NCBI RefSeq assembly: GCF_044324875.1
Contig: NZ_CP172185.1
Strand: one strand, 5' to 3'
Length of the DNA: 64,000 bases
From: Escherichia coli
GTDB lineage: Bacteria > Pseudomonadota > Gammaproteobacteria > Enterobacterales > Enterobacteriaceae
Below the pieces are notes generated by a model. The model saw only the letters and a list, made by a program, of their open reading frames with translations. It did no database searches and was not told the origin of the DNA. Within the stretch, counting starts at the first letter, position 1. Each line of letters opens with the position of its first letter. Position numbers and translations under genes: made by a program. Of this stretch, positions 5,197 through 36,995 are shown in pieces.

Positions 5197-5220
5197 CCCA
5201 CAGGGACTCATCCCTGTGGG
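5197..5220 (+). other. GC-rich palindrome CCCACAGGGA-N4-TCCCTGTGGG, followed by GGGACGGGTCCC and a T-run
   Basis: Perfect 10-bp inverted repeat read from sequence; possible terminator or RNA element between small ORFs. Confidence 0.5.
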
Positions 5221-5250
5221 ACGGGTCCCGGCTTTTTCAGGAGAAATTTC

Positions 5251-5589: not shown

Positions 5590-5600
5590 CACACCGCCAT

Positions 5601-5626
5601 CCCGTGAGGGCTCAGCTCCTCACGGG
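5601..5626 (+). other. palindrome CCCGTGAGG-N8-CCTCACGGG
   Basis: 9-bp inverted repeat upstream of the RBS of the 5665 ORF; the same motif recurs at 6148..6173. Confidence 0.5.
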
Positions 5627-5664
5627 GCTGTTCCCTCGGTGATTTTCATACAGAGAGGAGCAGA

Positions 5665-6102: not shown

Positions 6103-6123
6103 CCGGCTGGACTTTTGACGATG

Positions 6124-6147
6124 GCGGAATGTGACAATTCCGCTTTT
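6124..6147 (+). terminator. candidate intrinsic terminator (GCGGAAT-N6-ATTCCGC + TTTTCC)
   Basis: Stem-loop followed by T-run 20 nt after the stop of the 5665..6102 ORF. Confidence 0.4.
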
Positions 6148-6182
6148 CCCGTGAGGGCATTGTTCCTCACGGGACAATGCCC
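6148..6182 (+). other. two overlapping alternative palindromes (CCCGTGAGG/CCTCACGGG and GGGCATTGT/ACAATGCCC)
   Basis: Read from sequence; the two stems are partly mutually exclusive; sits just upstream of the RBS of the 6210 ORF. Confidence 0.45.
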
Positions 6183-6209
6183 TCTTCATTTACCAGAGGA
6201 GCATTGATT

Positions 6210-7187: not shown

Positions 7188-7196
7188 TGAAACAAT

Positions 7197-7221
7197 GCGC
7201 CACATTTTGTGGCGCTTTTTT
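7197..7221 (+). terminator. intrinsic terminator (GCGCCAC-TTTT-GTGGCGC + TTTTTT)
   Basis: Perfect 7-bp stem followed by T6, 10 nt after the stop of the 6210..7187 ORF. Confidence 0.6.
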
Positions 7222-7268
7222 AATAAATCAGTGATGGCAGAGTTGTTATTGTAAATAACTCTCCGTGT

Positions 7269-10184: not shown

Positions 10185-10186
10185 GA

Positions 10187-12223
10187 TTAGTTTCTTACCA
10201 CCAAATCTAAATCAATAGATTTTTTATTAGCATAACTTTTTAGTGCTTCATTGAGTTCCATCTGTTTCGCACTTTCGAAGTTGCTGCCATAAAATACAAC
10301 TTTGTTAGGGGCAAAGTCTTTGTCTGCATCCAGCTTTTGAAGTAAAGCTTTCAAAGCCTCACTTGTGAAATTAGGCGCAATTAGATATAGCCGACCATCG
10401 CACAAGTGTGCTTTGTAGCCATTAAGGTCAATATCTTCAATTGGTGTTGTTAGCAAGCTGCCATCATACACGCACCATGTCGTCAATAGAGTGTCATACT
10501 GCTCTGGTGTCAATACAGCATCGTCAAAGAAACTAAGATTAGAAAGCGTAAGTTCAGACTCATCTTTCACTCGAAAATTATGAACTGTTTCAAATATTTT
10601 AAATCCCAAATCTCCATTATAATTAGGATTATCTTTTTTCAGCTTTTTTCCTGCCTTAATAATTCTGTCTTTTGTTATATTGAAGATGGATTTATACCCT
10701 TCTTTATAGGCTTGTTTCTTTTTATCTGTTTCTTCATCTAATTGAACACAGATGAAGTTTCTTTTCCTGCCGTCTTCAATATTTAACTCCAGAATACCAT
10801 GAGCTGTAGTTCCAGAGCCAGCAAAAAAGTCAAGATAAATGTCTTTATCTTCGGTTTTTACTGAACCAAATAGTGTTTTTATTAAACTTGTTGGCTTCGG
10901 GTAGGAGAAATATCCTTTCCCACCAAAAAGATTTTCAACCTCAACACCACCATCACTTTTAGTTGAAATAATTGATCTTAGTAAAAACTCTTCAACTTCA
11001 TCTAAAAATTTAACCGAACTGGGTTGGGTGTTTTCTGTACTGGCAAACCAAATTCCACCACAAATAACGCTACCATCATGTAGTTTTTTGATATCTGCAT
11101 ACTTTCCATCTATTCTTTTTGCAATATGATTAAAAGTGCCTTCTTTCCAACGCCAGCCTCTGTCTGGGATTTTGACAGGGTTATTAGTCAAAGGGTGCAA
11201 TACTTCATACGTGGGTCCAAATGAATCTGCATTAGGCCAGCTCATATTAATTTTACCCCATGGCCTATAATCTTCGTTCAAACAGTTGTAAAGAGTAATT
11301 CCACGATCATATCCGTTGGAGCTGTAGAATTTTTTGAGTTGCTGCTCTGCTTTATCTAATGGCACCTTCTCCTTTTTTAACTTTTCAATAAACTGATATA
11401 CATCATCAATACCATCTTTCCGCATTAAAAATTCTTTACTTATTTCGTTATTCTTCGCATAAGCAAGGATGTACTCATGGATATTACCAATACCCTTATC
11501 ATTTTTAGGGATACGTTTATTCCATACAATATTTTCTATGAAATTTGCTTCGCCAAAAATTTCATCACAAATAGTTTTAAGTTGATTTAATTCATTTTCG
11601 TCAATCGAAATAAATATCACACCATCTTCACGTAGAAGCTCACGAGCAATATATAAACGAGGATAAATGAACGTTAACCATGCGCTATGGCTGCTTGAAC
11701 CATTCGTGGTAAATTCAAGTATACGTTTAGCCTCATCAAGATCGATACCTGCCAGATCAGAAAGCTGTTCAGGTGTAAACTTGCGATCATCGTTATAGGC
11801 GAATCCATCCTTACCTGTATTGTATGGTGGATCAATGTAAATCATCTTCACCTTTTCAGAGTAAGCATTAACCATATGCTTCAATACTTCGAGGTTATCC
11901 CCTTTGATTAACAGATTCTGACTGTTTTTGTTCTCTTCACGTTGGTTATGGTCTTTATCTTCGGAGAGTAATGTCTTCGGCGGCAAGTTAGCTAACAGAC
12001 GGGCATAGGATTTACCAAGCCAGTTCAGGCTGTATGATTCTTTGGAGAGTTCAACATCCGATGATTTGACGATTTCAAGCAATTTTTCCTGAATGAACGC
12101 TCCATTTTTATCAAAACACTGTGGAAAGTTAGCCTTTAAAATCGCAAGCTGTTTACTGTTTGTGGTTTCAGTTTCAGAGAAAAGAGTTTCTTTTTTCAGT
12201 TGAAATTGGGGTTGTGTATTCAT
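10187..12223 (-). CDS. mod: Type III DNA methyltransferase Mod (N6-adenine)
   Basis: 678 aa; motif IV IYIDPPYNTG before motif I LDFFAGSGTT (beta-class order typical of Type III Mod); strong GGAGG RBS; ATG 12223 overlaps the stop of the upstream leader ORF. Confidence 0.9.
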   Translation of the reverse strand: MNTQPQFQLKKETLFSETETTNSKQLAILKANFPQCFDKNGAFIQEKLLEIVKSSDVELSKESYSLNWLGKSYARLLANLPPKTLLSEDKDHNQREENKNSQNLLIKGDNLEVLKHMVNAYSEKVKMIYIDPPYNTGKDGFAYNDDRKFTPEQLSDLAGIDLDEAKRILEFTTNGSSSHSAWLTFIYPRLYIARELLREDGVIFISIDENELNQLKTICDEIFGEANFIENIVWNKRIPKNDKGIGNIHEYILAYAKNNEISKEFLMRKDGIDDVYQFIEKLKKEKVPLDKAEQQLKKFYSSNGYDRGITLYNCLNEDYRPWGKINMSWPNADSFGPTYEVLHPLTNNPVKIPDRGWRWKEGTFNHIAKRIDGKYADIKKLHDGSVICGGIWFASTENTQPSSVKFLDEVEEFLLRSIISTKSDGGVEVENLFGGKGYFSYPKPTSLIKTLFGSVKTEDKDIYLDFFAGSGTTAHGILELNIEDGRKRNFICVQLDEETDKKKQAYKEGYKSIFNITKDRIIKAGKKLKKDNPNYNGDLGFKIFETVHNFRVKDESELTLSNLSFFDDAVLTPEQYDTLLTTWCVYDGSLLTTPIEDIDLNGYKAHLCDGRLYLIAPNFTSEALKALLQKLDADKDFAPNKVVFYGSNFESAKQMELNEALKSYANKKSIDLDLVVRN

Positions 12224-12432
12224 AACGCACCTCCAGAATGCACGGAGGTACTTGACGCGGAATTTTTATACAGGCATATTGTTGCGTTGCGTTGCGTTGC
12301 GTTGCGTTGCGTTGCGTTGCGTTTCGTTGCGTTGCGTTGCGTTGCGTTGCGTTGCGTTGCGTTGCGTTGCGTTGCGTTGCGTTGCGTTGCGTTGCGTTGC
12401 GTTGCGTTGCGTTGCGTTGCGTTGCGTTTCAT
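12220..12432 (-). CDS. repeat-containing leader ORF, 70 codons, MK(RNATQ)n..., translationally coupled to mod
   Basis: ATG at 12432 with GAGG 7 nt upstream; the whole pentanucleotide tract is inside the ORF; TGA stop overlaps mod ATG (ATGA). Confidence 0.4.
   Translation of the reverse strand: MKRNATQRNATQRNATQRNATQRNATQRNATQRNATKRNATQRNATQRNATICLYKNSASSTSVHSGGAL
12281..12430. repeat. pentanucleotide tandem repeat (GTTGC)n, 30 units, 28 perfect
   Basis: Read directly: 8 perfect units, GTTTC variant at 12321..12325, 20 perfect units 12326..12425, GTTTC variant 12426..12430. Confidence 0.95.
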
Positions 12433-12465
12433 TAAATAGCCTCGAGTTTCGTTTTACAGGTTTTT

Positions 12466-12494
12466 ATTCTAACCTGAATTGTTGATTTTCTGAA
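12466..12494 (-). promoter_or_regulatory. candidate sigma70 promoter for the leader-mod-res transcript (-35 TTCAGA, 17-nt spacer, -10 TAGAAT)
   Basis: Hexamers read on the minus strand upstream of the leader RBS; no experimental support. Confidence 0.25.
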
Positions 12495-12505
12495 TAAGTC
12501 TGACG

Positions 12506-12680
12506 TCAGTTGTTACGGGAAGGTATCAGAGTGGCTAGATGCACTGTGGCACGTCTCATGGCGGTTATGGGGCTTGCCGGCGTTCTCCGGGGGGTAAAGC
12601 TCCGTGCTACTGTCACCTGGAACGCCGTTGCCGCAGGCGACCGCGTAAACCGTCTGTACCGCCCGGGCCCAATATTAAGA
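12506..12680 (+). pseudogene. IS3-family transposase (OrfB-like) internal fragment, degenerate
   Basis: Translation LLREGIRVARCTVARLMAVMGLAGVLRG...AVAAGDRVNR resembles the middle of IS3-family OrfB; no start; homology ends abruptly. Confidence 0.5.
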
Positions 12681-12709
12681 ACTAACGTCATACCAGGGAC
12701 GTTGTCTGA

Positions 12710-13723
12710 ATGGATGAGAAGCTAAAACATGCGGATTTATCGTCTTTGCCAGAGCAGGTGAGGGTTGCCGCTAGGGAGCTTGTTGACCTGAAGTTTCGTA
12801 TCGATATGGCAGCAAGAGGCGGTACGTCAGGGATACCACTTGACCTGCATGGGAGGATGACAGGAGGAGAATGGGGGCCGCATTGCGGGCTGGAATTTTT
12901 CTGCAGCATCATTCCTTTTTTCCCGCGAGATTTTGAAACCTGTTCAGTAACTGAAATGTTGGTTCCTACCTTACATACCTTCGGCTGCAACTGGCGTTGG
13001 TGGCCCGATCGTTATTGTAGCGACAAAGATGAACACTATATACGGCGTCACATTTTTTCTGATTACGGGCTGAAAAGTACGAGCTATACCTTCATTCCTC
13101 AGTTGGGATTGTTCTGCCCGAGTGAAGGTAAAAATCGTGTTAACTTCTGCCGCCATCACGGTATCGAATATATCCCCGCACAGGTTTATTCCCATGATTA
13201 CCCAGAAGCAAATCGAATCTCTGTGTACGTTCAGGATACTGCCGGAGGGCTGGATGTGTGGGCCGTTCTTGATAATCGCTATGTTCAGAAGGTTACTCAC
13301 TATGCCTTTGCGCTCCCACTTTTGTGCGCTTATGGGGTAGAGTTCCCAGGTAAGTGGCCAGCAGGATGGCCATCGATATCGGACCTCCTGGCTAATCAAC
13401 TGTGTTGCACTGATGACACAACCTTTCATAAACCCGTGATCGATATGCAAGCTGTCAGGGATACGCTGGATCGTGATGAGAACAGCAGAGAGGATGGGGA
13501 GATGTATGTCAAAACCAATGTGGTTGAGCTGCCGCTGGCCGGGCTGGTTCGCTTCATTCTGATCGCAATGTTACTGAGTTTAGGTGCGTTGTTCATCCAC
13601 GAGGTACTGGATGAGGGAAGCCTGTCCAGGATTGCACTGGGAATAAGCACTTTCACGGCTGGCGTGGTTGCTTCGTTTTTTATCCCAGCGTTCCGTATCA
13701 AGAAAAAATATCTTCGCAAATAG
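12710..13723 (+). CDS. hypothetical protein with two C-terminal transmembrane helices (337 aa)
   Basis: ORF track; Cys/Trp-rich soluble part, then hydrophobic helices and a KKK tail; no recognised domain. Confidence 0.35.
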   Translation: MDEKLKHADLSSLPEQVRVAARELVDLKFRIDMAARGGTSGIPLDLHGRMTGGEWGPHCGLEFFCSIIPFFPRDFETCSVTEMLVPTLHTFGCNWRWWPDRYCSDKDEHYIRRHIFSDYGLKSTSYTFIPQLGLFCPSEGKNRVNFCRHHGIEYIPAQVYSHDYPEANRISVYVQDTAGGLDVWAVLDNRYVQKVTHYAFALPLLCAYGVEFPGKWPAGWPSISDLLANQLCCTDDTTFHKPVIDMQAVRDTLDRDENSREDGEMYVKTNVVELPLAGLVRFILIAMLLSLGALFIHEVLDEGSLSRIALGISTFTAGVVASFFIPAFRIKKKYLRK

Positions 13724-13725
13724 TT

Positions 13726-13993
13726 GTGGCATTTCTTGAACACTTTTTCGAGACAGGTTCAACCGCAGGCATTCAGGCCAAACATGCGGTTAAACTACGT
13801 ATTCAATTAACTGCCCTAAATATGGCTAAGCGCCCGGACGATATGTCTGTCTGCACCTAGGTGGAAATTACACCCTCTAAAGGGAGCTGATCTTAGAGGT
13901 CATTGGGAAATATCAGTAAACTCTAACTGGCGAATTACCTTTCGATTTGAAGGCGAAGACGCAATTCTGGTTGACTATCAGGATTATCATTGA
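13726..13993 (+). pseudogene. higB: HigB/RelE-family toxin remnant (frameshifted, no start)
   Basis: Two frames together give ...FFETGSTAGIQAKHAVKLRIQLTALN... / ...WKLHPLKGADLRGHWEISVNSNWRITFRFEGEDAILVDYQDYH*, the characteristic HigB C-terminus as I remember it. Confidence 0.5.
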
Positions 13994-13998
13994 GGGAT

Positions 13999-14001
13999 AA
14001 C
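13999..14001. repeat. 3-bp target-site duplication AAC (left)
   Basis: AAC flanks both ends of the IS629-like element (right copy 14747..14749). Confidence 0.45.
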
Positions 14002-14746
14002 TGAACCGCCCCGGGAATCCTGGAGACTAAACTCCCTGATAAAGAGGTAAACAGAATGACTAAAAATACTCGTTTTTCCCCCGAAGTCCGTCAGAGGGCG
14101 ATTCGTATGGTTCTGGAAAGTCAGGGCGAATATGACTCACAGTGGGCGGCAATTTGTTCCATTGCCCCAAAGATTGGCTGTACACCGGAGACTCTGCGTG
14201 TCTGGGTACGCCAGCATGAGCGGGATACCGGAGGCGGTGATGGCGGGCTCACCACCGCTGAACGTCAGCGTCTGAAAGAGCTGGAACGTGAAAATCGTGA
14301 ACTGCGCCGCATCGTCTATGGAAACGACATTCGTGCTGGATGCTCTGGAGCAGGCGTTATGGGCCCGTCGACCGTCCGGCACAGTCCATCACAGTGATAA
14401 AGGTTCTCAGTATGTATCGCTGGCCTACACACAGCGGCTTAAGGAAGCCGGATTACTGGCATCAACAGGAAGTACTGGTGACTCGTATGACAACGCGATG
14501 GCGGAGAGCATCAATGGCCTTTACAAAGCGGAGGTAATACACCGTAAGAGCTGGAAAAACCGGACAGAAGTGGAGCTGGCCACACTCACGTGGGTGGACT
14601 GGTATAACAATCGACGATTGCTGGAAAGGCTGGGCCATATCCCACCGGCAGAAGCAGAAAAAGCTTATTATGCTTCCATCGGAAACGATGATCTGGCAGC
14701 CTGAGTTCACAGATAAAACACTCTCCAGGAAACCCGGGGCGGTTCA
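14002..14746 (+). mobile_element. IS629-like (IS3 family) element with ~565-bp internal deletion
   Basis: Terminal inverted repeats TGAACCGCCCCGGG(A/T)TTCCTGGAGA at both ends; OrfA N-terminus [15 protein letters not shown]...RENRELRR is fused directly to OrfB C-terminal part ...[11 protein letters not shown]...DDLAA; 745 bp against ~1.3 kb expected (from memory). Confidence 0.7.
14056..14704 (+). pseudogene. truncated and fused IS3-family orfA/orfB
   Basis: ORF track 14056..14397 (OrfA 1-87 plus out-of-frame tail) and 14288..14704 (OrfB C-terminal ~130 aa). Confidence 0.6.
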
Positions 14747-14749
14747 AAC
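14747..14749. repeat. 3-bp target-site duplication AAC (right)
   Basis: See 13999..14001. Confidence 0.45.
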
Positions 14750-14767
14750 TATGAGTCGTATTCATAA

Positions 14768-14959
14768 TCCCGCCACTCAGGCGCGGTTCTTCGTGAAGAT
14801 CTGGGAGATATGTCAGTCACAGACGCTGCCACCGCATTGGGCATTACTCGCACGGCGCTTTCCCGGATTCTGAACGAAAAAGCGGGTATTTCTGCGGATA
14901 TGGCGCTCCGTCTGGAATCAGCACTCGGAACCAGCGCCGAAATGTGGACAGGTATGTAA
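14768..14959 (+). pseudogene. higA: HigA-like HTH antitoxin remnant (frameshifted, truncated)
   Basis: Translation HSGAVLREDLGDMSVTDAATALGITRTALSRILNEKAGISADMALRLESALGTSAEMW, an XRE-type HTH; normal start displaced by the IS insertion; C-terminal continuation is in another frame. Confidence 0.45.
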
Positions 14960-15163
14960 TCACAGTATGAGCTTTGGGTTGCTTCGCAAACTGCTCGCCC
15001 AAACATTCGCCCATTATTTCACCATGCCTGACATGCATTCCCCAACATTGGACGGGGAGCCGTCATGGAGGGGGCTACGCAGGAACCGCCGAAAGCACGC
15101 TGTTTTATATTTGTTTTATTGAATATAAGAGGAGGCCATAAAACGGCCCCCTTGTTTTTATCA

Positions 15164-15489
15164 GAAAGAGTAACGGAAGCTGGCGTTCACCGCGTTATCC
15201 ACGTTGTACTTACCAAATGCCGATTTCTCAAACTCCAGACCAAAGCGGAGATTATCGCGAATTTCTGCATTCAGACCAACATTCATGAGCATACGTCCGT
15301 CTTTCTCGCCTTTGATGCGTTTTTCACCAGAGGCATCGCGCGGAACGGTTTCACTGTTTGCCAGAATGTCAAACTGGTAACCGAGGCCGGCACGGGCAGT
15401 GACTTTCCAGTCCTTACCAGAGAAGGTTTTACCGACATCGATACCGGTACGGCCAATCAGCGGGTTGAAGTCCTTTCTGGTGTGAGAAC
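15164..15489 (-). pseudogene. autotransporter beta-domain C-terminal fragment (Ag43/AIDA-I-like), 5'-truncated
   Basis: Minus-strand translation ...GLGYQFDILANSETV...MLMNVGLNAEIRDNLRFGLEFEKSAFGKYNVDNAVNASFRYSF* with terminal aromatic; in-frame stop immediately upstream, no start. Confidence 0.45.
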
Positions 15490-15640
15490 CTTAAGGAAAT
15501 CGTCCGCAGCCCCATTACCGTCTTATATCACTGGCGCTGACATGTATTATCCGGGGAGTTAAGTCTGTCGATGTCCGACAGACTTTTGATAATGGAAACA
15601 ACATGCAGCGATAATGTGCATGCTGTTTTGCAGGTGGAAC

Positions 15641-25797: not shown

Positions 25798-26259
25798 TCA
25801 CGGGAGTAGCGTCTGCCTGTTGCCGTTGTATTCCAGAATCACACTGTCCGGTGTGATTTGTTCCACCATGAACAGTGTACCGGGTAATGCCTGTCCGGCC
25901 CTGACATCAGTTTCAGTTCCTCCGGGGAGTATGACGCGTGCTGAAAGCTGTGGCTGAATACCAAAGATTTCTTTCAGACGGGGGGATGAAAATGCCTGTG
26001 AACCGGAGGAGGTGCCAGCCGCATTTTCCGGCTGATGTCCCGTGACAGAACCGGAAACCGGGGAGATACCCTGTTCCAGTGTCCGCAATTCATGACGAAT
26101 TTTTTCTCTTGCCAGCATCGCTTCATACAGGGCGGTTTCTTCCTGAATCTGCTCAATCTGCAGTTGTTTGTTCTGTGACGCGTCATTTTCGTTGCCGGCC
26201 ACTGCCATTGCCGGTAACAGCAGGGCTGCAATCAGCAGCGCTTTTGTTTTATCGTGCAT
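25798..26259 (-). CDS. pilP: PilP
   Basis: ATG 26259 (MHDKTKALLIAALLLPAMAVAG, signal peptide); position in operon. Confidence 0.6.
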   Translation of the reverse strand: MHDKTKALLIAALLLPAMAVAGNENDASQNKQLQIEQIQEETALYEAMLAREKIRHELRTLEQGISPVSGSVTGHQPENAAGTSSGSQAFSSPRLKEIFGIQPQLSARVILPGGTETDVRAGQALPGTLFMVEQITPDSVILEYNGNRQTLLP

Positions 26260-27535
26260 AATATTTACCTGTGAACTGATAACGGAAACGACCATTTTCC
26301 AGTTGTCTTGTGACAGAGAGAAAACGGACAGATGGCTCGCTGAAGCGCTCTGCCAGCTGGTTAGCCGGGAGTAGCGTCTGTATCTGCAGGTCATACTCTT
26401 TCCACGGTGGCTGGATGATGTTTCCGTTTTCATCAGTGAAGCTGTTATTGACTTCCTGCCAGTCAATCTGCAGTTGAACTGACTGTGCGAGCGTGGTCAG
26501 TCGTTCCTGCAGGTCTCGGGTTTCCGGAAGGGAATCAACCGGGACAGGATTATCCGGGAGCCGGAATGTGACCGGCAGTGCAACGCCGCCAGAGTTCCCT
26601 TCAGGCATAACAATAAACGGCCGGGTGTCTGTGAGTTCAGTGATGCGCCGGATGAAGGCTGTCACTGTCGTGCCTGCTGTATTGGTGTATGAAGAACGCA
26701 GATTACCGCTGTTACCGTCAGAAGAACATTCAGCCAGGGTATAACGCCATCCGGCAGCAGACAGTGGCGTCTGGTTCCATGTTGTGCTGCATTGCCGGAT
26801 AAATTCTCCGCTCTCAGGCTGCCTCGTCCATGGTGGCGTTATACGTGCTTCAGCTGCTTTCCGGGCGCTTTCTTCCCGTTCCGCTTTTTCCGCCTGCCAG
26901 ATTTCATAACGTTGCCAGCCGTACCACGATGCGCCAAGCAGCGTGATGATGAGTAAGGCTGTCATTAACTGTGGGCCTCTGGACACGGGGAGCAGACGCG
27001 CTTCTGCCGGATGCTTTCTGGTGCTGATCAGGTTTGACAGCGGTAGCGGGATACACCGACTGTCTGGTGAAAAACCGTCAGGTTCGTAGCGTACCCAGCC
27101 GTTTTCCGGTTCCGCATTGAGCATCAGGAACGTGTTGCGGGCTTCCGTGATTTCAGTCGGGGTACCGGTAACGTCGTTAACCAGAATGCCATTAATCACC
27201 GATACAAACGCACAGGTGAGTTCAGCGTCGTCGTTCTCGATGATGAAAATGGCATACCCACCTGATTTGAGTAGCGGGCGTATTAACATTGCCAGTGACA
27301 GGCACTGGCGAATGTTACGGGGGATATCTGCATCCTGACGACTGAGCAGGGCAATCATCATTTCATCACCGTTTTCACCGTCGTGGTTGTGGCAGGAAAG
27401 ATACAGTTCTGCGCCCTGTGACCGGGCAAACCGCCGGGCATTCCGGTAACCGGGAGGTATGCTCTTCCAGTCAAGGCCCGCAAGGAATGCCTGTTTACCC
27501 GATATCAGTGAAACCGGACGAATTTTTTTCTGCAT
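26249..27535 (-). CDS. pilO: PilO
   Basis: ATG 27535 (MQKKIRP); single transmembrane segment mid-protein; position in operon. Confidence 0.6.
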   Translation of the reverse strand: MQKKIRPVSLISGKQAFLAGLDWKSIPPGYRNARRFARSQGAELYLSCHNHDGENGDEMMIALLSRQDADIPRNIRQCLSLAMLIRPLLKSGGYAIFIIENDDAELTCAFVSVINGILVNDVTGTPTEITEARNTFLMLNAEPENGWVRYEPDGFSPDSRCIPLPLSNLISTRKHPAEARLLPVSRGPQLMTALLIITLLGASWYGWQRYEIWQAEKAEREESARKAAEARITPPWTRQPESGEFIRQCSTTWNQTPLSAAGWRYTLAECSSDGNSGNLRSSYTNTAGTTVTAFIRRITELTDTRPFIVMPEGNSGGVALPVTFRLPDNPVPVDSLPETRDLQERLTTLAQSVQLQIDWQEVNNSFTDENGNIIQPPWKEYDLQIQTLLPANQLAERFSEPSVRFLSVTRQLENGRFRYQFTGKYYAR

Positions 27536-27558
27536 TGACCCGTTCAAGGGAACCTCCG

Positions 27559-29184
27559 TCAGATTACGTGCGGTGTGATCAGCACAACCAGAATGGTGTC
27601 ATCGTCACCGCTGTCAGTGCCGCCACCCAGCCCGAAGAATGCCGGGCTGCCGACGCCCTGGCGCACGGATTTGCTGCCGGACTGCCGGAATCCGCTGAGA
27701 ATGACGGTCTGACCTGATTTCAGGTCGATGGTCTGGTTGATGGTTTTCAGGTCCACCGTGGGTACCTGTGCCCGGCTGCCGCCGCTCTCGAACACCTCAA
27801 AGGTGGGTTTGTCGGAGAGGTTCATGCTGAAGAGCAGCTGCAGGCTGCGCGCATCCGGCTGAATGAACGGCAGCAGGGTCATGTTGAAGCCGGTGGTGAT
27901 GGTGGCGGCGTTCAGGGAGGTGCTGGTCCCGACGTTGGCCGTGGTGTCGGTGGTGACACCTTCGATATAGCCCTGCTGGCTGGCCACCTGCATGGGCACC
28001 GGCGTCATGTTTTTGGTGACGGCGGAGTTCTGTGTGACCACGCTGACGGTGCCCTGACTGGAGAGCGCCTTCAGGAAGGCCTTCGAGCCGGTGAGCTTAC
28101 CGTCCACAATGGAGACGCCACTGGTGATGATGTCATCGGCGGCACTGCTGAATGCCCCTCCCAGCGTGAGGCCGAGACGTCCGTCGCTGAAGACGGCATT
28201 CCAGTCAATGCCGGCCTGGTCACGGCGGGTTTTTCTGACGCTGAGGACTTCCACGTTCAGCACCACCTGACGTCGCATCTCGCGGTTACGTGCCTCCACA
28301 AAACGGCTGACGGTGTCGAGGACCCGAGGGGTGTCGGTGACGGTGAGAAAGCCGGTGGCAAGCACCATCCGGCCGGTCCCGGGGGTCAGCATGGCACCGA
28401 CGGCATTTTTCAGGTCCTCATAGAGGGTGGACTTCATGTCGACCGTGGTGGTCTGGGTGTTGCTGGCCTCCCCGCTGAGGGTGCCGGCGTTACTGCCGGT
28501 ACTGCTGCCGGATGAGGAGGAGGCGGTGCCACTGACGACTCTGGCATTGTAGGCGACCTGGCTGTCCATGTAGGTGACCGGGAAGGTGCGTGTCTCCAGC
28601 CAGTAAAAGGTGATGGCGCGCCGGTCACTGTCGTAACGGTACGAGATACCGAGCCGGGAGGCGACGGTATCCAGCAGCTGCCGCAGCCCGGTGGCGCTGA
28701 GTTCCGGCAGGACGGCACCGCCGCCCGGGGGGATGACCTGTGCGCCACTGCCGACGGCGGCCAGCGGCACCATGCCGTTCGGGTCAGGTGCGGGGATTGC
28801 GCCTGTCAGCTGCTGTGTGGGGCCGGTGGTGGCCAGCGCCTGCCAGACGTCGGCGGTGATGGTCACGGGGATACCGCAGCTTCCGGTGATGCGCTGGGCT
28901 ATCTGCCGCAGGCTGATATCCCGGCGGGTGTTGATGATGATGGGGCAGCCCGGCAGGCTCTGGTGTGCGGGGCTGACGCTGACAGGAGAGGGGTTGATCC
29001 ACTGTCGCGTGGTCTCCGTGACCACCGGCCGGGATTTACGGAGTTCGCCCGCGTGCCGGCGCGCTTTCTCCAGTGTGGCGGTGGCGTCTTTTTCCGTGTT
29101 GCTGATACGTTCGGCCGTACCGCAGCCTGACAGCAGCAGGGCGACGGCAGTCAGTGGCAGGAGCATGTGTTGTCTTTTTTTCAT
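27559..29184 (-). CDS. pilN: PilN, secretin-family outer-membrane lipoprotein
   Basis: ATG 29184 (MKKRQHMLLPLTAVALLLSGC lipobox); Ser/Thr/Gly-rich beta-domain; GC-rich. Confidence 0.8.
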   Translation of the reverse strand: MKKRQHMLLPLTAVALLLSGCGTAERISNTEKDATATLEKARRHAGELRKSRPVVTETTRQWINPSPVSVSPAHQSLPGCPIIINTRRDISLRQIAQRITGSCGIPVTITADVWQALATTGPTQQLTGAIPAPDPNGMVPLAAVGSGAQVIPPGGGAVLPELSATGLRQLLDTVASRLGISYRYDSDRRAITFYWLETRTFPVTYMDSQVAYNARVVSGTASSSSGSSTGSNAGTLSGEASNTQTTTVDMKSTLYEDLKNAVGAMLTPGTGRMVLATGFLTVTDTPRVLDTVSRFVEARNREMRRQVVLNVEVLSVRKTRRDQAGIDWNAVFSDGRLGLTLGGAFSSAADDIITSGVSIVDGKLTGSKAFLKALSSQGTVSVVTQNSAVTKNMTPVPMQVASQQGYIEGVTTDTTANVGTSTSLNAATITTGFNMTLLPFIQPDARSLQLLFSMNLSDKPTFEVFESGGSRAQVPTVDLKTINQTIDLKSGQTVILSGFRQSGSKSVRQGVGSPAFFGLGGGTDSGDDDTILVVLITPHVI

Positions 29185-29373
29185 GCAGAAATCCTTGTGT
29201 GAAACGTGAAAACAGTGAGCAGAGCAGGGAGGGCAGAAGCGCTTCGGGACTGAAGTCTGCGCGTGATGGCGATATATCCGCGGGACATGACCGCGGCCGG
29301 ATATGCAGACTTCAGTCCACAGGCTCCTCACACTGTGCGGGACAGCGAAGGTTAACGGTGCAGTGATGTCCCG

Positions 29374-29811
29374 CTAGTTGAAATAAACAAATGCGCTGTC
29401 AGGAATGACGGACGGCACGCTGATACCGGTGTCCTGACCTGTGGTGTTCAGCAGTCGCCGCCCCTTCACCCGGCCTGCCAGCGCGGTTTTGTGGGTGATG
29501 TCTGCCAGCGCACCTGCAAGCCCAGGGCGGTCATCCTGCCAGACAAAGACCCGCTGTCCGGCGATGATATGGCGGGTACCGTATACCGGGCGGAAACCCG
29601 TGGCGGTGACGGGGAGCGTGCCACCCCCCGTGCGCTCAGCCGGATGGGTGTACAGCCGGTCGTTAATGCCGTTCATGAGGCGGACCATCTCCCACGCACG
29701 TTCACGCATCTCCGCCTGCTCGCTGTACACGGTGACCCGGTGGGTACTGCTGTTGTGAAACCAGGTCAGCGCCACGGTCAGGGCCATGACCAGGGAGAGC
29801 GACCAGCCCAT
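29374..29811 (-). CDS. pilM: PilM
   Basis: ATG 29811 (MGWSLSLVMAL) directly after the pilL stop; position in operon. Confidence 0.55.
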   Translation of the reverse strand: MGWSLSLVMALTVALTWFHNSSTHRVTVYSEQAEMRERAWEMVRLMNGINDRLYTHPAERTGGGTLPVTATGFRPVYGTRHIIAGQRVFVWQDDRPGLAGALADITHKTALAGRVKGRRLLNTTGQDTGISVPSVIPDSAFVYFN

Positions 29812-29813
29812 GG

Positions 29814-30539
29814 TCAGTCTCCCGGTCTGTCGCTGACGTGCACCACACACTGCGTGCTGTTGATGGCTGCATACAGCGGCGTCTGTGCGTCCTGATAGAG
29901 ACGGAAGAGTTCACTGAGCGCGTGGCGGAACTCGCCGGTGAAATGCAGCGGCGCATCGATGCTGTAATTGAGTCTGGGGTTCTGCCAGGCCAGCTGCCAG
30001 GTGCCACCGGCCTGACAGGGAACGGCGGCCACCCACTGCTCAAGACCGGCACGCAGCAGGGTTCCGCGGGCAAGAGTCCAGGTGGTCCGTGCATGCGCCG
30101 GTTGCGGCATGTTTGCTGATTTTTCCGCGGTTTTTTCCTGCAGACTGGTGGTGCCCGGGGTGGCCTGAGACGGACTGAACAGGGTGTTCCGCTCAATACG
30201 TACATGCTTCTTCTCCGTGTCGGTGATGGCGCGGAGCTGATATTTTTTCAGCATGCGTTCCGTAACGTAATTCCACTGGTCATTTCCCTTCCATGACACC
30301 GTGCGGGGCGGCCTGACATCCGGTGCAATGTCAAATGTCCATCCCGGCGGTATCAGTTGCTGCATGGCTTTTTTCAGTGATAACCCTTTACCGTCCCGGG
30401 GAATAAATTTCAGTGCTCCCGGAGCGCTGCTGACCGTGGACGATGAGGGTGCACTGACCTGAGAAGGTGACGGTGCAGCAAAAAGTGGAACAGAAAATGC
30501 CAGCAGCGGCACAATAAGAAGTGGTTTCAGTGGTGTCAT
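29814..30539 (-). CDS. pilL: PilL, lipoprotein, first gene of the pil operon
   Basis: Signal peptide MTPLKPLLIVPLLAFSVPLFA; position at the head of the pil cluster. Confidence 0.6.
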   Translation of the reverse strand: MTPLKPLLIVPLLAFSVPLFAAPSPSQVSAPSSSTVSSAPGALKFIPRDGKGLSLKKAMQQLIPPGWTFDIAPDVRPPRTVSWKGNDQWNYVTERMLKKYQLRAITDTEKKHVRIERNTLFSPSQATPGTTSLQEKTAEKSANMPQPAHARTTWTLARGTLLRAGLEQWVAAVPCQAGGTWQLAWQNPRLNYSIDAPLHFTGEFRHALSELFRLYQDAQTPLYAAINSTQCVVHVSDRPGD

Positions 30540-31336: not shown

Positions 31337-32845
31337 ATGTCCCTGAATCCCACCGATGAACAGTCAGCCATCATTCACTGGCAGGGGGAAAAACTGGTGG
31401 TGAATGCCTTTGCCGGTACAGGCAAAACCAGCACACTGGTGCAGTTCGCCGCAGCCTGCCCTGAGAGCCGGATGCTGTATCTGGCCTATAACCGCGCGAT
31501 TCGTGATGAGGCGGAGCGCCGGTTTCCCTTTAATGTGGAGTGCAAAACCTCCCATCAGCTGGCGTATTCGCGGTTCGGAAAGCATTTCCGGCATCGTCTG
31601 GTGCCGGGGCTGTCAGTGACGGATGTAGCGAGAAAACTGAACACCCGCTACTGGACGCTTGCCCGTGTTGCCATGACCGCGCTGAATCAGTTCATCTGTT
31701 CGGCGGACGTGGCGCCCGGAATGCAGCATATGCCGCCTCCCGACGAGATGAAGGGCATGTCGCCACAGGATGCGCTGCGTGCCGTGCAGATCCTCTGGCA
31801 TGAAATGAGCAATCCGGATGGCAATTTTCCGGTCACTCACGACACCTATCTGAAGCTCTATCAGCTTTCCTCACCGGATCTGTCACGCAGGTGGGATACG
31901 ATCCTTTTTGATGAGGCCCAGGATGCGAATCCGGTGACGTCCGCACTGGTGCTGGGGCAGCGGTGCAGGGTGGTACTGGTTGGCGACCGTTACCAGCAGA
32001 TTTATCGTTTTCGTGGTGCCAGCAATGCACTGTCGCATCCGGCACTGAACGGGGCGGACCGTCTCTGGCTGACGCAAAGTTTTCGTTTTGGTCCTGCCGT
32101 GGCCGGGGTGGCCAGCCAGTTACTGAAGCGTGCCGGCGAGAGCCGTGAGGTGACCGGCAGGGGCGGGGATGATGAAGTGCTGACGGCAGGTGAAATGCGT
32201 GCGCGCGTGAAGGCAGGGAAGATGACCGGTCACAGGGCGATACTGAGCCGGACGGTGGCCGGTGTGATTGGCACCGCACTGATGGCGGCAATGCGTGGCA
32301 GGAAGGTTTACTGGGTGGGGGGCATTGAAGGCTACAGAACGGAGGCACTGGAAGATCTTTACTGGTTTCAGATGGATATGCCGGAGCGGATGCACAGTGA
32401 CAGACTGCGGAAGGACTACCGGGGTTTTGACGAGTACCGTCATATTGCGAAGGTGACGAAGGATGTGGAAATGAATCAGTCCATTCGTCTGCTGGAGCTG
32501 TGCTTTCCGCTGCCGAAGAAACTCGAACTTCTCAGAAAGCACACCGTCACGAATGAACAGGAGGCGGATATCACGGTCTCAACGGCACACCGCAGTAAGG
32601 GACTGGAGTGGTCACTGGTGGTACTCGATGATGATTTTCAGGATATCACCGACCCGCTGATAAGCGAGCAGGAGCGGCGGGATGAAACCAATCTGCTCTA
32701 TGTGGCGGTCACCCGGGCGCGCAGAACGCTGGTTCTCAATGAACTCATGCAGCAGCTGACGGAAGCTGCCGGCGATGGTGGTGCACCCGGAAACGCGCCG
32801 GTGCAGGGGAAGGAAGACGATGGTGTGGAGGGAGAGGATGTTTAA
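31337..32845 (+). CDS. UvrD/PcrA-like superfamily 1 helicase (502 aa)
   Basis: Walker A AFAGTGKTS, Walker B/DEAQD, motif VI-like VAVTRARR; RBS GGAGG upstream. Confidence 0.75.
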   Translation: MSLNPTDEQSAIIHWQGEKLVVNAFAGTGKTSTLVQFAAACPESRMLYLAYNRAIRDEAERRFPFNVECKTSHQLAYSRFGKHFRHRLVPGLSVTDVARKLNTRYWTLARVAMTALNQFICSADVAPGMQHMPPPDEMKGMSPQDALRAVQILWHEMSNPDGNFPVTHDTYLKLYQLSSPDLSRRWDTILFDEAQDANPVTSALVLGQRCRVVLVGDRYQQIYRFRGASNALSHPALNGADRLWLTQSFRFGPAVAGVASQLLKRAGESREVTGRGGDDEVLTAGEMRARVKAGKMTGHRAILSRTVAGVIGTALMAAMRGRKVYWVGGIEGYRTEALEDLYWFQMDMPERMHSDRLRKDYRGFDEYRHIAKVTKDVEMNQSIRLLELCFPLPKKLELLRKHTVTNEQEADITVSTAHRSKGLEWSLVVLDDDFQDITDPLISEQERRDETNLLYVAVTRARRTLVLNELMQQLTEAAGDGGAPGNAPVQGKEDDGVEGEDV

Positions 32846-34367
32846 GCGGTTCAGACGTATGCTGCCCGGCACAAAGGGCACGGAGCCTGGCGTGGTCGCG
32901 CCGGTGATACCGGCAGGGTTTTATGCGCCGCTCACGGCAGAGGCACTGTTATCACCAGAGCACAGGGAGCTGAGGCTCAGGCAGGTCTGGGATAACAATC
33001 CGATGCCCCGTGATGTATACGACAGGATGTGCCTTGAACCACTCAGCCGGCTGCTGCTGAACACCCAGAACGTCCCGGCAACACGGGAAGGACGGTGGTC
33101 CCGTGCCGGTGGATTTGGTGATCTGACGGTACTGTACACCACGTATGCCGTTCGTCTGGCAAGAGGGTACATGTTTCCACCGGATGCGACCCCGGAAGAC
33201 CAGGCGGCTCAGGCCGCAGTCTGGCATGCGGTGATTTTCTGGTCAGCGCTGTTTTACCACCTGCCCCTGCTGGCGCACCTTGAGGGGGAACTGCTGAGTG
33301 GGCGGGGCTGGCAGCCAGGAATTTCTGTGCCTGACGAACCTTTCCGTTTCCGGTTCAGGAAGACGGCGCCGCAGGGTACGGAAGCGCAACAACTTGCGGC
33401 CCTGACTGCCGGCACGCTGTTACCGGACGGCGCAACGGCCTGGCTTGTGACGGCGCCGGGCGCACTGCAGAATCTGGCCGGGGCGCTCTGGCATCAGCAT
33501 CCCGGGATGGCGCTGATTCGTGATGTGCTGCAGGAAGCGGCAAGGCAGACAGAGAGTCCGCTGAATACCTGCGCTGTCACTGCGCCGGTTACTGCGGAGG
33601 CTTCAGCAGACATCCGTCCTGCTGACCCGGTGGTGACCGGCAGCACGGACAGTGTGGTGGCAGTCACTGAGGTGCAGCCGGCAGAGGAGGTGAAGACTGA
33701 GAGCGTGCAGACAGAGACTGAAGGTGGTGGTGAGTCCGCCGGGGCGTCAGAGGTGCCGTCCGCACAGCAGGAACTGACGGTTCAGACAGCGCCAGTGGTG
33801 ACGGCAGATGATGAAGCGGTCAGTGCTGCTCCTGCGGATCAGGACACAGCAATGCTGCTGAGTCTTTTTTCAGCAGATGAGTCCGAAACTGCTGAACCTG
33901 AAAACAGTATTAAATCGTCAGCCGATCGGGACGGCCAAAGTGACGTACCGGCAGTACAGGGAGAACAAACCAGCGTTATTTATCCGGAGGGCGAAGCAGA
34001 TACGGAAGAGGTGGATTTTATTACTTGGCTGAAATCGGGGTTGTCATCGGGGATGATTGAAATAAATACACCTTCCGCGAGAGTGCATTGTATTGCGGGG
34101 TATGTTTTTTTGTGTGTCCCGGATATTTTTTATCTGTATCAGAAAATGACGGGAAGCCGTCGTGACCGCAGGAGTGTTCAGGCGTTGTTTGAACGTTCCC
34201 GTATTCACAAAATCCGGGAAGGTGAGCGTTTTTTCAGCCTGCATCTGTATAGTGTACCTGACAGAACAGGGAGTTATAAAGCTGTAAGCGGATATCTGGT
34301 TAAAAGCCGTTATCTGTGTGGTTATAACGCAGTGCCCGGGGACAGTGAATACATTGCTTTTCCATAA
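32838..34367 (+). CDS. hypothetical protein with central acidic low-complexity region (~510 aa)
   Basis: ATG 32838 overlaps the helicase stop (ATGTTTAA); acidic Glu/Asp/Thr/Ala-rich linker roughly 33580..33990; structured C-terminal domain. Confidence 0.5.
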   Translation: MFKRFRRMLPGTKGTEPGVVAPVIPAGFYAPLTAEALLSPEHRELRLRQVWDNNPMPRDVYDRMCLEPLSRLLLNTQNVPATREGRWSRAGGFGDLTVLYTTYAVRLARGYMFPPDATPEDQAAQAAVWHAVIFWSALFYHLPLLAHLEGELLSGRGWQPGISVPDEPFRFRFRKTAPQGTEAQQLAALTAGTLLPDGATAWLVTAPGALQNLAGALWHQHPGMALIRDVLQEAARQTESPLNTCAVTAPVTAEASADIRPADPVVTGSTDSVVAVTEVQPAEEVKTESVQTETEGGGESAGASEVPSAQQELTVQTAPVVTADDEAVSAAPADQDTAMLLSLFSADESETAEPENSIKSSADRDGQSDVPAVQGEQTSVIYPEGEADTEEVDFITWLKSGLSSGMIEINTPSARVHCIAGYVFLCVPDIFYLYQKMTGSRRDRRSVQALFERSRIHKIREGERFFSLHLYSVPDRTGSYKAVSGYLVKSRYLCGYNAVPGDSEYIAFP

Positions 34368-34397: not shown

Positions 34398-35510
34398 ATG
34401 TATTCCCCTATGAAGAAAGATGTCGAAAAAATAACGTGGGAGGAATTACTCTTTGAGTACTTCCTTGAGAAAAATCTTAAACCTGATACTGAACACAGCT
34501 ACCGCAAAGTTGTCCGTCTGTTTGATAAGTTCCTGGGCGGTGATTCCTGGCCCGGCGATGTCACACCGAGAGACATTCAGCGATGGCGACGTCATATGCT
34601 TAAAGATCAGGGGCGTTCAGTAAACACCTGGAATAACAGAGTGTCACATCTCCGACCGCTCCTGGCGCTTGGGATCAAGAAAAAGTGGTTACCACAGACG
34701 GAAAATCCGCTTGATGGCACTTCAGTGCCCGGGGCATCAAAACAGAAAAAAACGCTCACTGATAAAGAGATGGTCAGGATTTACCGTACAGTTCAGGCTT
34801 TTGCTGAAGCTGAGGCCAATAAGATGGTGATCTGTGACAGGCGGCGCAATGCGATGTACCCTGCATGGTACTGGCTGATCGTGCTGGATACGCTGCGCTT
34901 CACGGGGATGCGTTTTAACCAGCTGAAACATATCAGGCTGAAGGATATTCATGAGGATGAGGCGGTGATTACCCTTCAGCTGGAAGGGAGTAAAACCCGA
35001 CGTGAATGGCGTGTGCCGATTGTGGAATCGTTACGACTTTCACTGAAACATCTTATTGAGTGCGCCCGTGTCAATGGTGCGTCGGATAATGACTATCTCT
35101 TTGATGTCTGCCTGTACAGCGAGCATTACAGTCCCGGGAAATACCAGTACTGTGCCAAAAGAGCGCATCAGTCGGTCAAATCTTTTTTCCGCAGACTGAG
35201 CCGTGAATGTGGTTTTTTTGTCTCGTCACACAGATTCAGACACACACTGGCAACAAAGCTGATGGCGGCACCGGAGCGTAATCTGCACATGGTCAAATCC
35301 ATTCTGGGGCACAGGAGTGTTGCCACCACCATGGAGTATATTGATTTTTCGGTGGAAGTTGCTGCTGAGGCACTGGAGGCTGAACTCGGTTTATCCACGG
35401 ATGAGGCGACAAAAAGACGGATTAAAGAGGCGAAAAAACGCCGTGAGGCCAGTACCGGGAAAAAGGAAAAACAGGAAAGTTCTGGAGGGGAACTTTCTGA
35501 CAAGGAATAA
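34398..35510 (+). CDS. int: tyrosine recombinase / integrase
   Basis: R...HxxR...Y catalytic pattern (HRFRHTLAT, LGHRSVATTMEYI); ~200 bp from the tRNA 3' end; start at 34398 or 34410. Confidence 0.85.
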   Translation: MYSPMKKDVEKITWEELLFEYFLEKNLKPDTEHSYRKVVRLFDKFLGGDSWPGDVTPRDIQRWRRHMLKDQGRSVNTWNNRVSHLRPLLALGIKKKWLPQTENPLDGTSVPGASKQKKTLTDKEMVRIYRTVQAFAEAEANKMVICDRRRNAMYPAWYWLIVLDTLRFTGMRFNQLKHIRLKDIHEDEAVITLQLEGSKTRREWRVPIVESLRLSLKHLIECARVNGASDNDYLFDVCLYSEHYSPGKYQYCAKRAHQSVKSFFRRLSRECGFFVSSHRFRHTLATKLMAAPERNLHMVKSILGHRSVATTMEYIDFSVEVAAEALEAELGLSTDEATKRRIKEAKKRREASTGKKEKQESSGGELSDKE

Positions 35511-35714
35511 ACATGCTTGACATCGGACCAGAATGGTGTAAGCATTTTTGCGTATGCGAGAGCGTGACACCTGTTACCAGCAGGTGCCACGCTTGAGGAT
35601 ACGATACTGAAACCACAGTGTAACCAGACTTACACGGAGATTTCGTTATGACCGGATCCTGTATTAGACGCCCGTTAAGGATCTCATCCCTTAACCAGCG
35701 TACTTTGATGCGTT

Positions 35715-35790
35715 TGGTGCCCGGAGGCGGAATCGAACCACCGACACGGGGATTTTCAATCCCCTGCTCTACCGACTGAGCTATCCGGGC
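35715..35790 (-). tRNA. pheV: tRNA-Phe (GAA), pheV-type, with variant T-stem
   Basis: 76-nt cloverleaf GCCCGGATAGCTCAGTCGGTAGAGCAGGGGATTGAAAATCCCCGTGTCGGTGGTTCGATTCCGCCTCCGGGCACCA; anticodon GAA; located beside yqgA. Confidence 0.9.
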
Positions 35791-35895: not shown

Positions 35896-36603
35896 TCAGG
35901 CAAACCAGGCGGTCCAGGCGGCGGAAAGCGGCATTGCCAGAAGGAGTGCTGGAAGCATGTTGACCACCGGGAACATTTTAATGCCACAGATGCGTAATCC
36001 GGTTGCCAGCAGCAATAAACCGCCTACGGCGCTGAAGTCTGCCATCATCGACGGTGTGGTCAGCGGTAATATCAGCGCGGCAGCCCACGCCAGCGTTAAC
36101 TGGATGATCAGTAATGGGATACTAATTACCGACACCGCAATACCCAACGAGCAGGCGAAGATCATCGCCGTAAAGAAATCGAGAAATGACTTGGCGATTA
36201 AAATACTCGGATCGCCGGTCATCCCTTCGTTCATCGCCCCGAAGATCCCGGTGCCGCTGGCGCAAAACAGGACAATAATCGCGACATAATTCTGAATAAA
36301 AGATTCATGCGCTGGCTTCTTACGTGAGTGGCGAAACAGATTTTGTGCTTTGGTGACCGCGGTATTGACGCCTTTTTCCAGCAGACAAATTTCGCCGATT
36401 AATGCACCGAGTAAGGTTGCTAACACCATCGCCGGAAGGTTGGCGCATTTCACCACCAGTAAAATACCAATCCCCAGCGATGCCAGACCAAAAATTGATG
36501 TCATGGAGACGCGGATACGTTCCGGTAAGCGTTGGCTAAGGAGTGCACCGAGAACGCCACCCAGTAATACTGCACTTGCGTTGATAAAAGGACCGATGAC
36601 CAC
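35896..36603 (-). CDS. yqgA: YqgA, DUF554 membrane protein
   Basis: ORF track 35896..36624; GTG at 36603 gives the 235-aa product I remember; ATG at 36624 is an alternative. Confidence 0.8.
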   Translation of the reverse strand: MVIGPFINASAVLLGGVLGALLSQRLPERIRVSMTSIFGLASLGIGILLVVKCANLPAMVLATLLGALIGEICLLEKGVNTAVTKAQNLFRHSRKKPAHESFIQNYVAIIVLFCASGTGIFGAMNEGMTGDPSILIAKSFLDFFTAMIFACSLGIAVSVISIPLLIIQLTLAWAAALILPLTTPSMMADFSAVGGLLLLATGLRICGIKMFPVVNMLPALLLAMPLSAAWTAWFA

Positions 36604-36995
36604 AAGAGTTCCTGTTAGCTGCATTGTCTGATTTTCTTATTATGAACGTTTGGCTCCTTCGATGGCTTGTTTGTTCGCAAAGTCCTGGCTTGCACGCTCT
36701 GCTGAAAGGTGCCATGATTGCGCGAATTTTCTCCTCTCTGTACGGAGTTTGCCCGATGCACGCCATCTCCTTACATTCTCTCGCTTATCGCCGTTTCGCG
36801 CGAAACTCCTCGCCTTTTCTGCTCATGCGGTGAAGTTAACGCACGCTCACTGCAGGACAACAGTAAAATCAGAGCGTTTCTGCTTTTACTGATGTCTGGC
36901 GGTCGGAGCTGGTGACCAGTTTGACCCATATCTCGTGGGGCAGGGTTTTTCACCTTGTCCGGTATTCTTACTTCCCCGAAACGGGTTTTGCGCTT

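Follow-up and report, generated by a model that had tools for sequence, protein, structure and literature searches.

Evidence that an integrative conjugative element supplied the 3′ part of the pheV tRNA-Phe gene in Escherichia coli

The tRNA-Phe gene at one edge of an island in an Escherichia coli chromosome carries a T-stem that differs from the canonical one, and the locus thus raises the question of whether the altered part of this gene belongs to the host or to the island. We analysed this question in a stretch of 64,000 nucleotides (contig NZ_CP172185.1), hereafter referred to as the window. The sole tRNA detected by ARAGORN in the window is tRNA-Phe(GAA), located at 35715–35790 on the minus strand, with the sequence GCCCGGATAGCTCAGTCGGTAGAGCAGGGGATTGAAAATCCCCGTGTCGGTGGTTCGATTCCGCCTCCGGGCACCA. 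The genes yqgA and speC are found on its 5′ side, and since at least 80% of the length of this flank is matched in 5,415 complete E. coli genomes, we identify the gene as E. coli pheV. Alignment with the canonical pheV and pheU genes of strains MS1494 and NC101 revealed differences at positions 49, 50, 64 and 65 only, namely, C49 to G (35742), U50 to G (35741), A64 to C (35727) and G65 to C (35726). The 5′ strand of the T-stem is thereby changed from CUUGG to GGUGG and the 3′ strand from CCGAG to CCGCC, so that the pairs C49–G65 and U50–A64 are replaced by G49–C65 and G50–C64 with Watson–Crick pairing kept. This alignment confirmed an earlier note on the same DNA, which had claimed that two T-stem pairs were changed on both strands without loss of pairing. 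Positions 1–26 were identical in every E. coli pheV or pheU copy aligned. The features of the locus are listed in Table 1.

Table 1. Features of the pheV locus and of the adjoining element in the window
Feature	Position	Strand	Basis
Further ICE interior: shufflon recombinase, TraF, type III restriction-modification, cargo	1..20095	.	Match to the ICE of GF43, E19035 and TUM1886
Type IVB pilus operon, pilL/M/N/O/P/Q/R/S/T/U/V type	20096..30539	-	PilN TIGR02520, 416 bits (cut-off 287.65); annotation of the TUM1886 locus, 100% identical
UvrD-like helicase of the int-traI-helicase end module	31337..32845	+	Weak NCBIfam helicase matches; homologous loci annotated as UvrD-helicase domain protein
TraI relaxase, PFGI-1 class (MobH-like)	32775..34367	+	TIGR03760, 193 bits (cut-off 161.4)
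ICE integrase, XerC/XerD-like tyrosine recombinase, convergent with the tRNA	34398..35510	+	NCBIfam hits
P′ arm of the att site, non-coding spacer (204 bp) from tRNA 3′ end to integrase stop	35511..35714	.	
pheV tRNA-Phe(GAA), chimeric: host 5′ part and element-derived 3′ part	35715..35790	-	ARAGORN, Rfam RF00005, cloverleaf fold, yqgA/speC flank
tRNA positions 49–76, necessarily from the element attP; holds all four substitutions	35715..35742	-	Alignments; 2015C-3121 junction; canonical displaced copy
tRNA positions 27–48, anticodon stem-loop and variable loop, 22 nt identical in attP and attB; inferred strand-exchange block	35743..35764	-	Repeat starts; first difference at 49
tRNA positions 1–26, host-only part of pheV	35765..35790	-	Not in the distal repeat or circular attP
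yqgA, first host gene 5′ of pheV (chromosomal backbone)	35896..36624	-	

The element on the 3′ side of pheV is an integrative conjugative element (ICE) of the ICEEc2/SGI-4/SPI-7 type, related to PAPI-1 and pKLC102, as indicated by the combination of the integrase, the PFGI-1-class TraI, the UvrD-like helicase and the type IVB pilus operon. The NCBIfam tyrosine-recombinase matches of the integrase (34398–35510) all fall under the equivalog cut-offs, and the matching ORF in TUM1886 is annotated as a tyrosine-type recombinase. E. coli tRNA-Phe genes are adjoined by at least five DNA classes of this integrase family; at the protein level, the window integrase (class 1) shares 50% identity with the SGI-4 integrase and 47% with the class-5 E. 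coli integrase. Positions 1–20000 of the window correspond at 99.8% identity to the ICE of GF43, APEC E19035, TUM1886 and others, and the GC content of the element is 54–65%, compared with approximately 50% in the backbone. The ICE runs off the window start. In GF43 it extends approximately 78 kb from the tRNA to its far end, and its continuation carries ICE-type conjugation genes, topoisomerase III, the STY4528 and STY4534 replication genes, parB, SPI-7-type dnaB and parA. The ICE-type conjugation genes (the TIGR037xx set, TraD and TraG) and, at the other end, parA, SPI-7-type dnaB and parB are present in the GF43 and E19035 copies, outside the window. Excision to a circular form and conjugative transfer have been shown for relatives, namely, SGI-4 (PMC7716197, PMC6543542) and clinical E. 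coli ICEs at pheV/pheU (PMC13127887), the latter carrying resistance and virulence cargo and being able to mediate Hfr-like chromosome transfer (PMC13127887).

Several further features of the element were noted. A shufflon at 19155–20458 lies between an rci-like recombinase (approximately 17980–19361, minus strand) and the 3′ end of pilV (20096–21385), and contains four copies of a 19–20-nt repeat, GTGCCAATCCGGTNTGTGG, in inverted orientations, with one pair separated by 8 nt (19674–19719); pilV and a shufflon are annotated at the matching TUM1886 locus. Two large minus-strand ORFs of 971 and 678 aa at 7269–12223 represent ICE cargo; in loci matching this region, type III restriction-modification endonuclease and methyltransferase are annotated. 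Within the P′ arm, an imperfect 12-bp inverted repeat, CGCCCGTTAAGG...CCTTAACCAGCG, was found at 35669–35700, 46 bp from the tRNA 3′ end. The P′ arm and this inverted repeat are conserved across the integrase classes, in the attP of pSGI4 and of a Citrobacter plasmid, and in Photorhabdus and Pantoea loci. The repeat might serve as a binding site for the integrase or an accessory protein, or might terminate transcription of int and the tRNA gene, which converge here.

If the 3′ part of pheV had come from the element, the host segment that it replaced should be found at the opposite end of the ICE, as the earlier note had also proposed. A search allowing up to three mismatches detected no second copy of the tRNA 3′ segment within the 64-kb window, because the ICE runs off the window start. 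The displaced copy was thus read in two close relatives of the window's strain, GF43 and APEC E19035, both of which carry the same ICE at 99.8–100% identity. Beside parA at the far end of the ICE in these two genomes, we found a 50-nt copy of tRNA positions 27–76 with the canonical CTTGG/CCGAG T-stem, which in GF43 reads ...CCAATTATGGCAC-GGGGATTGAAAATCCCCGTGTCCTTGGTTCGATTCCGAGTCCGGGCACCA-CTTTCAC.... The end repeats of the ICE in GF43 and E19035 are therefore 50 nt in length, with four mismatches between the two copies, and the displaced fragment is followed by non-ICE DNA, namely, a P4-type pheV-island integrase. The changes in the window had previously been assigned to a 3′ portion of approximately 30 nt; the substitutions indeed lie within positions 49–76, but the segment shared with the element att site is 50 nt (27–76).

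The same segment is present in circular forms of related elements. In pSGI4 and in a 72-kb Citrobacter plasmid, the attP region has the order int, P′ arm, tRNA-Phe 28–76, P arm and parA, and the T-arm of both is canonical. pSGI4 is the plasmid form of the Salmonella ICE SGI-4 and, as demonstrated experimentally, either replicates as a plasmid or integrates at pheV/pheR (PMC7716197). In E. coli 2015C-3121, two ICEs are arranged in tandem, and the attP-like junction between them (L132 1170–1513) consists of parA, the P arm, a 49-nt segment with the variant T-arm, the P′ arm and int. The presence of the variant T-arm at this junction indicates that the variant is element-borne and that the ICE family is polymorphic in this respect.

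In GF43 and E19035, position 27 is the first tRNA position of the repeat, and in the attP-type junctions of pSGI4, Citrobacter and 2015C-3121 the tRNA segment begins at position 28. Since the foreign T-arm lies beside the integrase and the native T-arm is displaced, the crossover would lie 5′ of position 49, with all sequence on its 3′ side contributed by attP; and since the repeat starts at 27 and the first difference is at 49, we infer from this pattern of differences that strand exchange took place within tRNA positions 27–48. The anticodon stem of Photorhabdus differs at positions 28 and 42, and the attP-type junction of its elements holds the host-type stem, so that the crossover was not narrowed further. 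A crossover within the tRNA, as anticipated in the earlier note, was thus upheld, but its site is not inside the last 30 nt; it is located at 27–48, 5′ of the T-arm. The reading of the tRNA 3′ half as island-derived was likewise supported, the label attR or attL being a matter of orientation only. Taken together, these results support the conclusion that the last 28–50 bases of pheV were supplied by the integrative conjugative element.

Based on these observations, it is very probable that the ICE integrated into pheV by means of its own integrase and that the 3′ part supplied by attP rebuilt the gene as a chimera. The ICE would have entered pheV by site-specific recombination via the XerC/D-like tyrosine integrase. 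Its attP would contain a copy of tRNA-Phe positions 27/28–76 placed between a parA-side arm and an integrase-side arm, and strand exchange would occur inside the 22-nt block common to attP and attB (27–48). Everything 3′ of the exchange, that is, the T-stem with both its strands, the T-loop and the 3′ acceptor strand, would then originate from the element, and the original 3′ segment of the host would now lie at the opposite end of the ICE, at a distance of approximately 78 kb. The attP copy of the window ICE would have carried the G49–C65/G50–C64 T-arm typical of Vibrionaceae, Xenorhabdus, Photorhabdus, Marinobacter and similar bacteria, and the rebuilt gene would accordingly differ from native pheV in two compensated base pairs. 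The tRNA remains folded and functional because both strands of the T-stem move together.

Bacteria that carry this T-arm in their own tRNA-Phe were identified by an exact-match scan using one genome per species, in which at least 120 DNA stretches matched. Among the matches listed, the variant 3′ half is the native tRNA-Phe of at least Vibrio, Aliivibrio, Salinivibrio, Photorhabdus, Xenorhabdus, Marinobacter, Alcanivorax, Marinobacterium and Idiomarina, in agreement with the earlier expectation of donor genera with a different tRNA-Phe; and, again among the matches listed, the whole 76-nt sequence of the window chimera is found in several genera, including Xenorhabdus ehlersii, Alcanivorax and Salinivibrio. 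Judged from these comparisons, four changes that hit exactly two base pairs and reproduce the T-arm of other genera are not a product of chance. A relative of the P′ arm is located directly after the tRNA in Photorhabdus and Pantoea stewartii loci, indicating that related elements reside in bacteria with this T-arm in their native tRNA-Phe.

Two observations from the same scan concern other hosts. In Pantoea stewartii CCUG 26359 (L034; tRNA ending at 1488, minus strand), a 5′ half reading GCCCGAA is joined to a 3′ half of the ICE type, after which comes a related P′ arm. An A6–C67 mismatch would arise in the acceptor stem, and the element half may misfit the host half. Partial tRNA-Phe copies starting at approximately 28–33 were found in 10 loci of Marinobacter, Xenorhabdus and others (L008, L037, L050, L064, L065, L069, L075, L109, L111 and L123), which suggests that islands using about the same tRNA-Phe sublocation are widespread in Gammaproteobacteria.

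We then analysed the distribution of the variant among 5,426 complete E. coli genomes. Of the 5,429 matching records, 72 carried the 76-nt variant exactly, and the remaining records showed 94.7% identity, corresponding to canonical tRNA-Phe. With the 76-nt variant as query, no record fell within the band of 95–99% identity, indicating the absence of half-swapped T-stems in genomes without the full variant. The 50-nt variant 3′ segment was detected at 81 places in 73 genomes. These genomes belong to unrelated backgrounds, including STEC, APEC, and human, bovine and poultry isolates, and the variant occurs at pheU (C5, TUM1886) in addition to pheV. The neighbouring integrase was assessed by coordinates for the 60 variant tRNAs listed, compared with the 73 variant genomes, the remaining 13 lying outside this count. 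An integrase of the ICE family adjoined 57 of the 60; two others (OkiPb01714 and strain 48) have several copies each of the tRNA and the integrase and probably adjoin as well; and the last, DSM 103246, has no adjoining ICE integrase.

These frequencies bear on the possibility that this E. coli lineage simply has the variant as its native pheV allele, unrelated to the island. DSM 103246 is the one genome that favours this possibility, since it carries the variant without an adjoining ICE integrase. In this strain (NZ_CP019944.1; L134 3475–3760), the variant pheV is followed by AATTCATATCAACGGACCTCC... and a P4-type integrase, and no class 1–5 ICE integrase was found in the genome. However, the flank is the same as that following the canonical displaced fragment in APEC E19035, which fits the loss of an ICE. 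According to the earlier note, the variant would be the native allele if island-free strains of the lineage carried it; DSM 103246 formally bears on this condition, but its flank reads better as an ICE-loss scar. Moreover, the allele is present in only 73 of 5,426 genomes, it nearly always adjoins an integrase of the family, and the displaced host copy, at the opposite end of the ICE, has the canonical sequence. The spread of the variant over both loci and over unrelated hosts and pathotypes excludes a lineage-specific native allele, in accordance with the earlier proposal that the allele is not native, and we consider this alternative very improbable.

Two compensatory mutations arising in place in pheV, independently of integration, would equally preserve pairing, as compensatory evolution predicts. 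Such an origin would, however, require the same four-base change at two loci in 73 genomes, and would leave unexplained that this change reproduces the native T-arm of many other genera and that the variant sits in the attP-type junction between tandem ICEs. Intermediates with one changed pair or one changed strand, which would be expected under this scheme, are missing among the genomes without the full variant. We therefore attach almost no probability to mutation in place, and return to a T-arm supplied by attP.

The cloverleaf is the minimum-energy fold of both tRNAs, with −37.1 kcal/mol for the variant and −34.1 kcal/mol for the canonical form, and the Rfam tRNA model RF00005 scored the variant at 69.1 bits (measured on the identical sequence of locus L128) and canonical tRNA-Phe at 68.3 bits. 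The stems, the GAA anticodon and the encoded CCA end of the variant are all intact. TUM1886 has two tRNA-Phe genes, both of them variant, pheV being associated with a class-1 (window-type) integrase and pheU with a class-5 integrase, and it has no canonical gene. The chimera must thus be able to serve alone, and the gene content of TUM1886 is indirect evidence that the variant tRNA can sustain Phe decoding in E. coli. The affinity for EF-Tu is set by the T-stem pairs 49–65, 50–64 and 51–63 (PMC3239215). In the additive table of Schrader and Uhlenbeck, the change from CG to GC at 49–65 corresponds to −0.4 kcal/mol and that from UA to GC at 50–64 to 0.0 kcal/mol (PMC3239215, Table 2); the predicted change in EF-Tu binding would therefore be small, about −0.4 kcal/mol in the direction of tighter binding.

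The folding analysis also bears on the position of the crossover. Were the integrase to cross over in the T-loop or at the very 3′ end of the tRNA, as presumed for P4-type integrases, the T-stem change would need some other origin. The P4-type GI-pheV islands inserted at this tRNA do have repeats of 19–23 bp that cover positions 54–76 only (PMC11537424), compared with the ICE repeat of 27–76. In addition, in E24377A (L003, approximately 6125–6160) and on the pheV side of TUM9803 (L131, approximately 1100–1484), a 23-bp attR remnant of a P4-type GI-pheV is joined directly to the P′ arm and integrase of the ICE. The fused attR has the sequence TTCGATTCCGAGTCCGG-CACCA with a 1-nt deletion, and the order is pheV, GI, attR and ICE; a simple exchange near the anticodon loop does not account for such a junction, and no consistent succession of events leading to it was found. 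A crossover in the T-loop would, however, exchange the 3′ strand of the T-stem only, generating a mismatched hybrid, and such hypothetical half-swapped T-stems neither adopted the cloverleaf fold nor occurred among the genomes without the full variant. A crossover at the 3′ end predicts a canonical tRNA next to the integrase and a variant copy at the far end, and the opposite arrangement was found. On the basis of these missing, non-folding half-swapped stems and the orientation of the variant and canonical copies, a T-loop or 3′-end crossover was ruled out as the source of the chimera, and the probability left to it is very small.

The relationship between the integrase and the T-arm is not uniform. 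At pheU of TUM9803, a class-1 integrase and P′ arm, 99.8% identical to those of the window, lie beside a canonical tRNA-Phe (L130 2449–2600). Among the loci with a class-4 integrase, the tRNA is canonical in NC101 and MS1494, and variant in C5. A strict link between integrase class and T-arm allele was therefore rejected. The uncoupling of T-arm and ICE, in TUM9803 pheU on the one hand (canonical, class 1) and in DSM 103246 on the other (variant, no ICE), would agree with placement of an element-supplied T-arm by homologous recombination or gene conversion, for instance in an Hfr-like transfer, instead of by an integrase crossover at 27–48; chromosomal transfer of the Hfr-like type is indeed driven by ICEs at pheV/pheU (PMC13127887). 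Against this, the junctions are precise, the repeat starts at 27 or 28 in every element examined, the circular attP holds exactly this segment, and blocks of identity of 11–22 nt are poor substrates for RecA. We thus regard homologous placement as improbable, and the integrase crossover at 27–48 as very probably the event that formed the chimera.

Integration at 27–48 may also be followed by excision at another position. Judged from its flank, DSM 103246 is probably the scar of an ICE lost by a crossover 3′ of the T-arm. The ICE at pheU of TUM9803 is the kind of product that would be expected from such an excision, and its attP would hold the host-type T-arm. These two loci raise the tentative possibility, to which we give somewhat less than even weight, that host and ICE swap T-arm alleles in both directions, an excision crossover at 66–76 leaving a scar in the chromosome and passing the host T-arm to attP. 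If this is true, the T-arm allele of pheU or pheV would record past ICE occupancy, and ICEs would act as vehicles by which a portion of an essential tRNA is replaced horizontally, EF-Tu affinity being predicted to change only slightly.

That attP rebuilds a tRNA gene, and that the fragment displaced from the 3′ end of this gene forms the distal repeat, is textbook knowledge of integration into tRNA genes. According to Williams (2002, Nucleic Acids Res 30:866), attP reportedly holds the 3′ segment of the tRNA, and the site of the crossover (anticodon loop, T-loop or 3′ end) is said to vary with the integrase subfamily. The same logic applies to the window pheV, with a repeat that reaches back to the anticodon stem. 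The exchange is visible here because attP and attB differ at two base pairs.

ICEs of the ICEEc2/SGI-4/SPI-7 kind are known to insert at pheV/pheU (PMC11537424, PMC6761156, PMC13127887), and this holds for ICEEc2 of E. coli BEN374 (Roche et al. 2010, J Bacteriol 192:5026), a member of the pKLC102/PAGI-2/PAPI-1 family. By description, ICEEc2 is of the same general type as the window ICE, with a XerC-like integrase next to the tRNA, genes for a type IV pilus and a conjugation module of the ICE type. SGI-4 of monophasic Salmonella Typhimurium ST34 and its plasmid form pSGI4 share with the window ICE the end module, in which a UvrD-like helicase, TraI and int are followed by attP and then by parA and SPI-7-type dnaB. 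The similarity of SGI-4 includes the integrase, at the 50% protein identity given above, an attP containing tRNA-Phe 28–76, and integration at either tRNA-Phe gene (PMC7716197, PMC6543542), whereas SGI-4 carries metal-resistance cargo and is only distantly similar in DNA sequence. Since the attP of SGI-4 has the canonical enterobacterial T-arm, its integration leaves the tRNA unmarked, unlike that of the window ICE. The resemblance to SPI-7 of Salmonella Typhi and its relatives at tRNA-Phe, based on the NCBI annotation of the GF43 ICE, includes a SPI-7-type replicative DNA helicase, STY4528, STY4534, a type IVB pilus operon and a shufflon, while cargo and size differ. The P4-type GI-pheV islands use the same tRNA gene and are often found in tandem with the window-type ICE (GF43, E19035), but they are not conjugative and have an integrase of approximately 420 aa that belongs to another family and has the same orientation as the tRNA.

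The integration mechanism, the ICE family and its use of pheV and pheU are thus already known. Part of an essential tRNA is replaceable by a foreign allele without harm, as judged from TUM1886, which has no native tRNA-Phe gene; this introduces no new principle, and the possible scar in DSM 103246 represents a modest lead. The value of the finding is mainly practical. The four-base difference in the T-arm bounds the crossover to tRNA positions 27–48, and provides an exact marker of the junction that this clinically relevant ICE family forms on integrating into pheV or pheU of E. coli.
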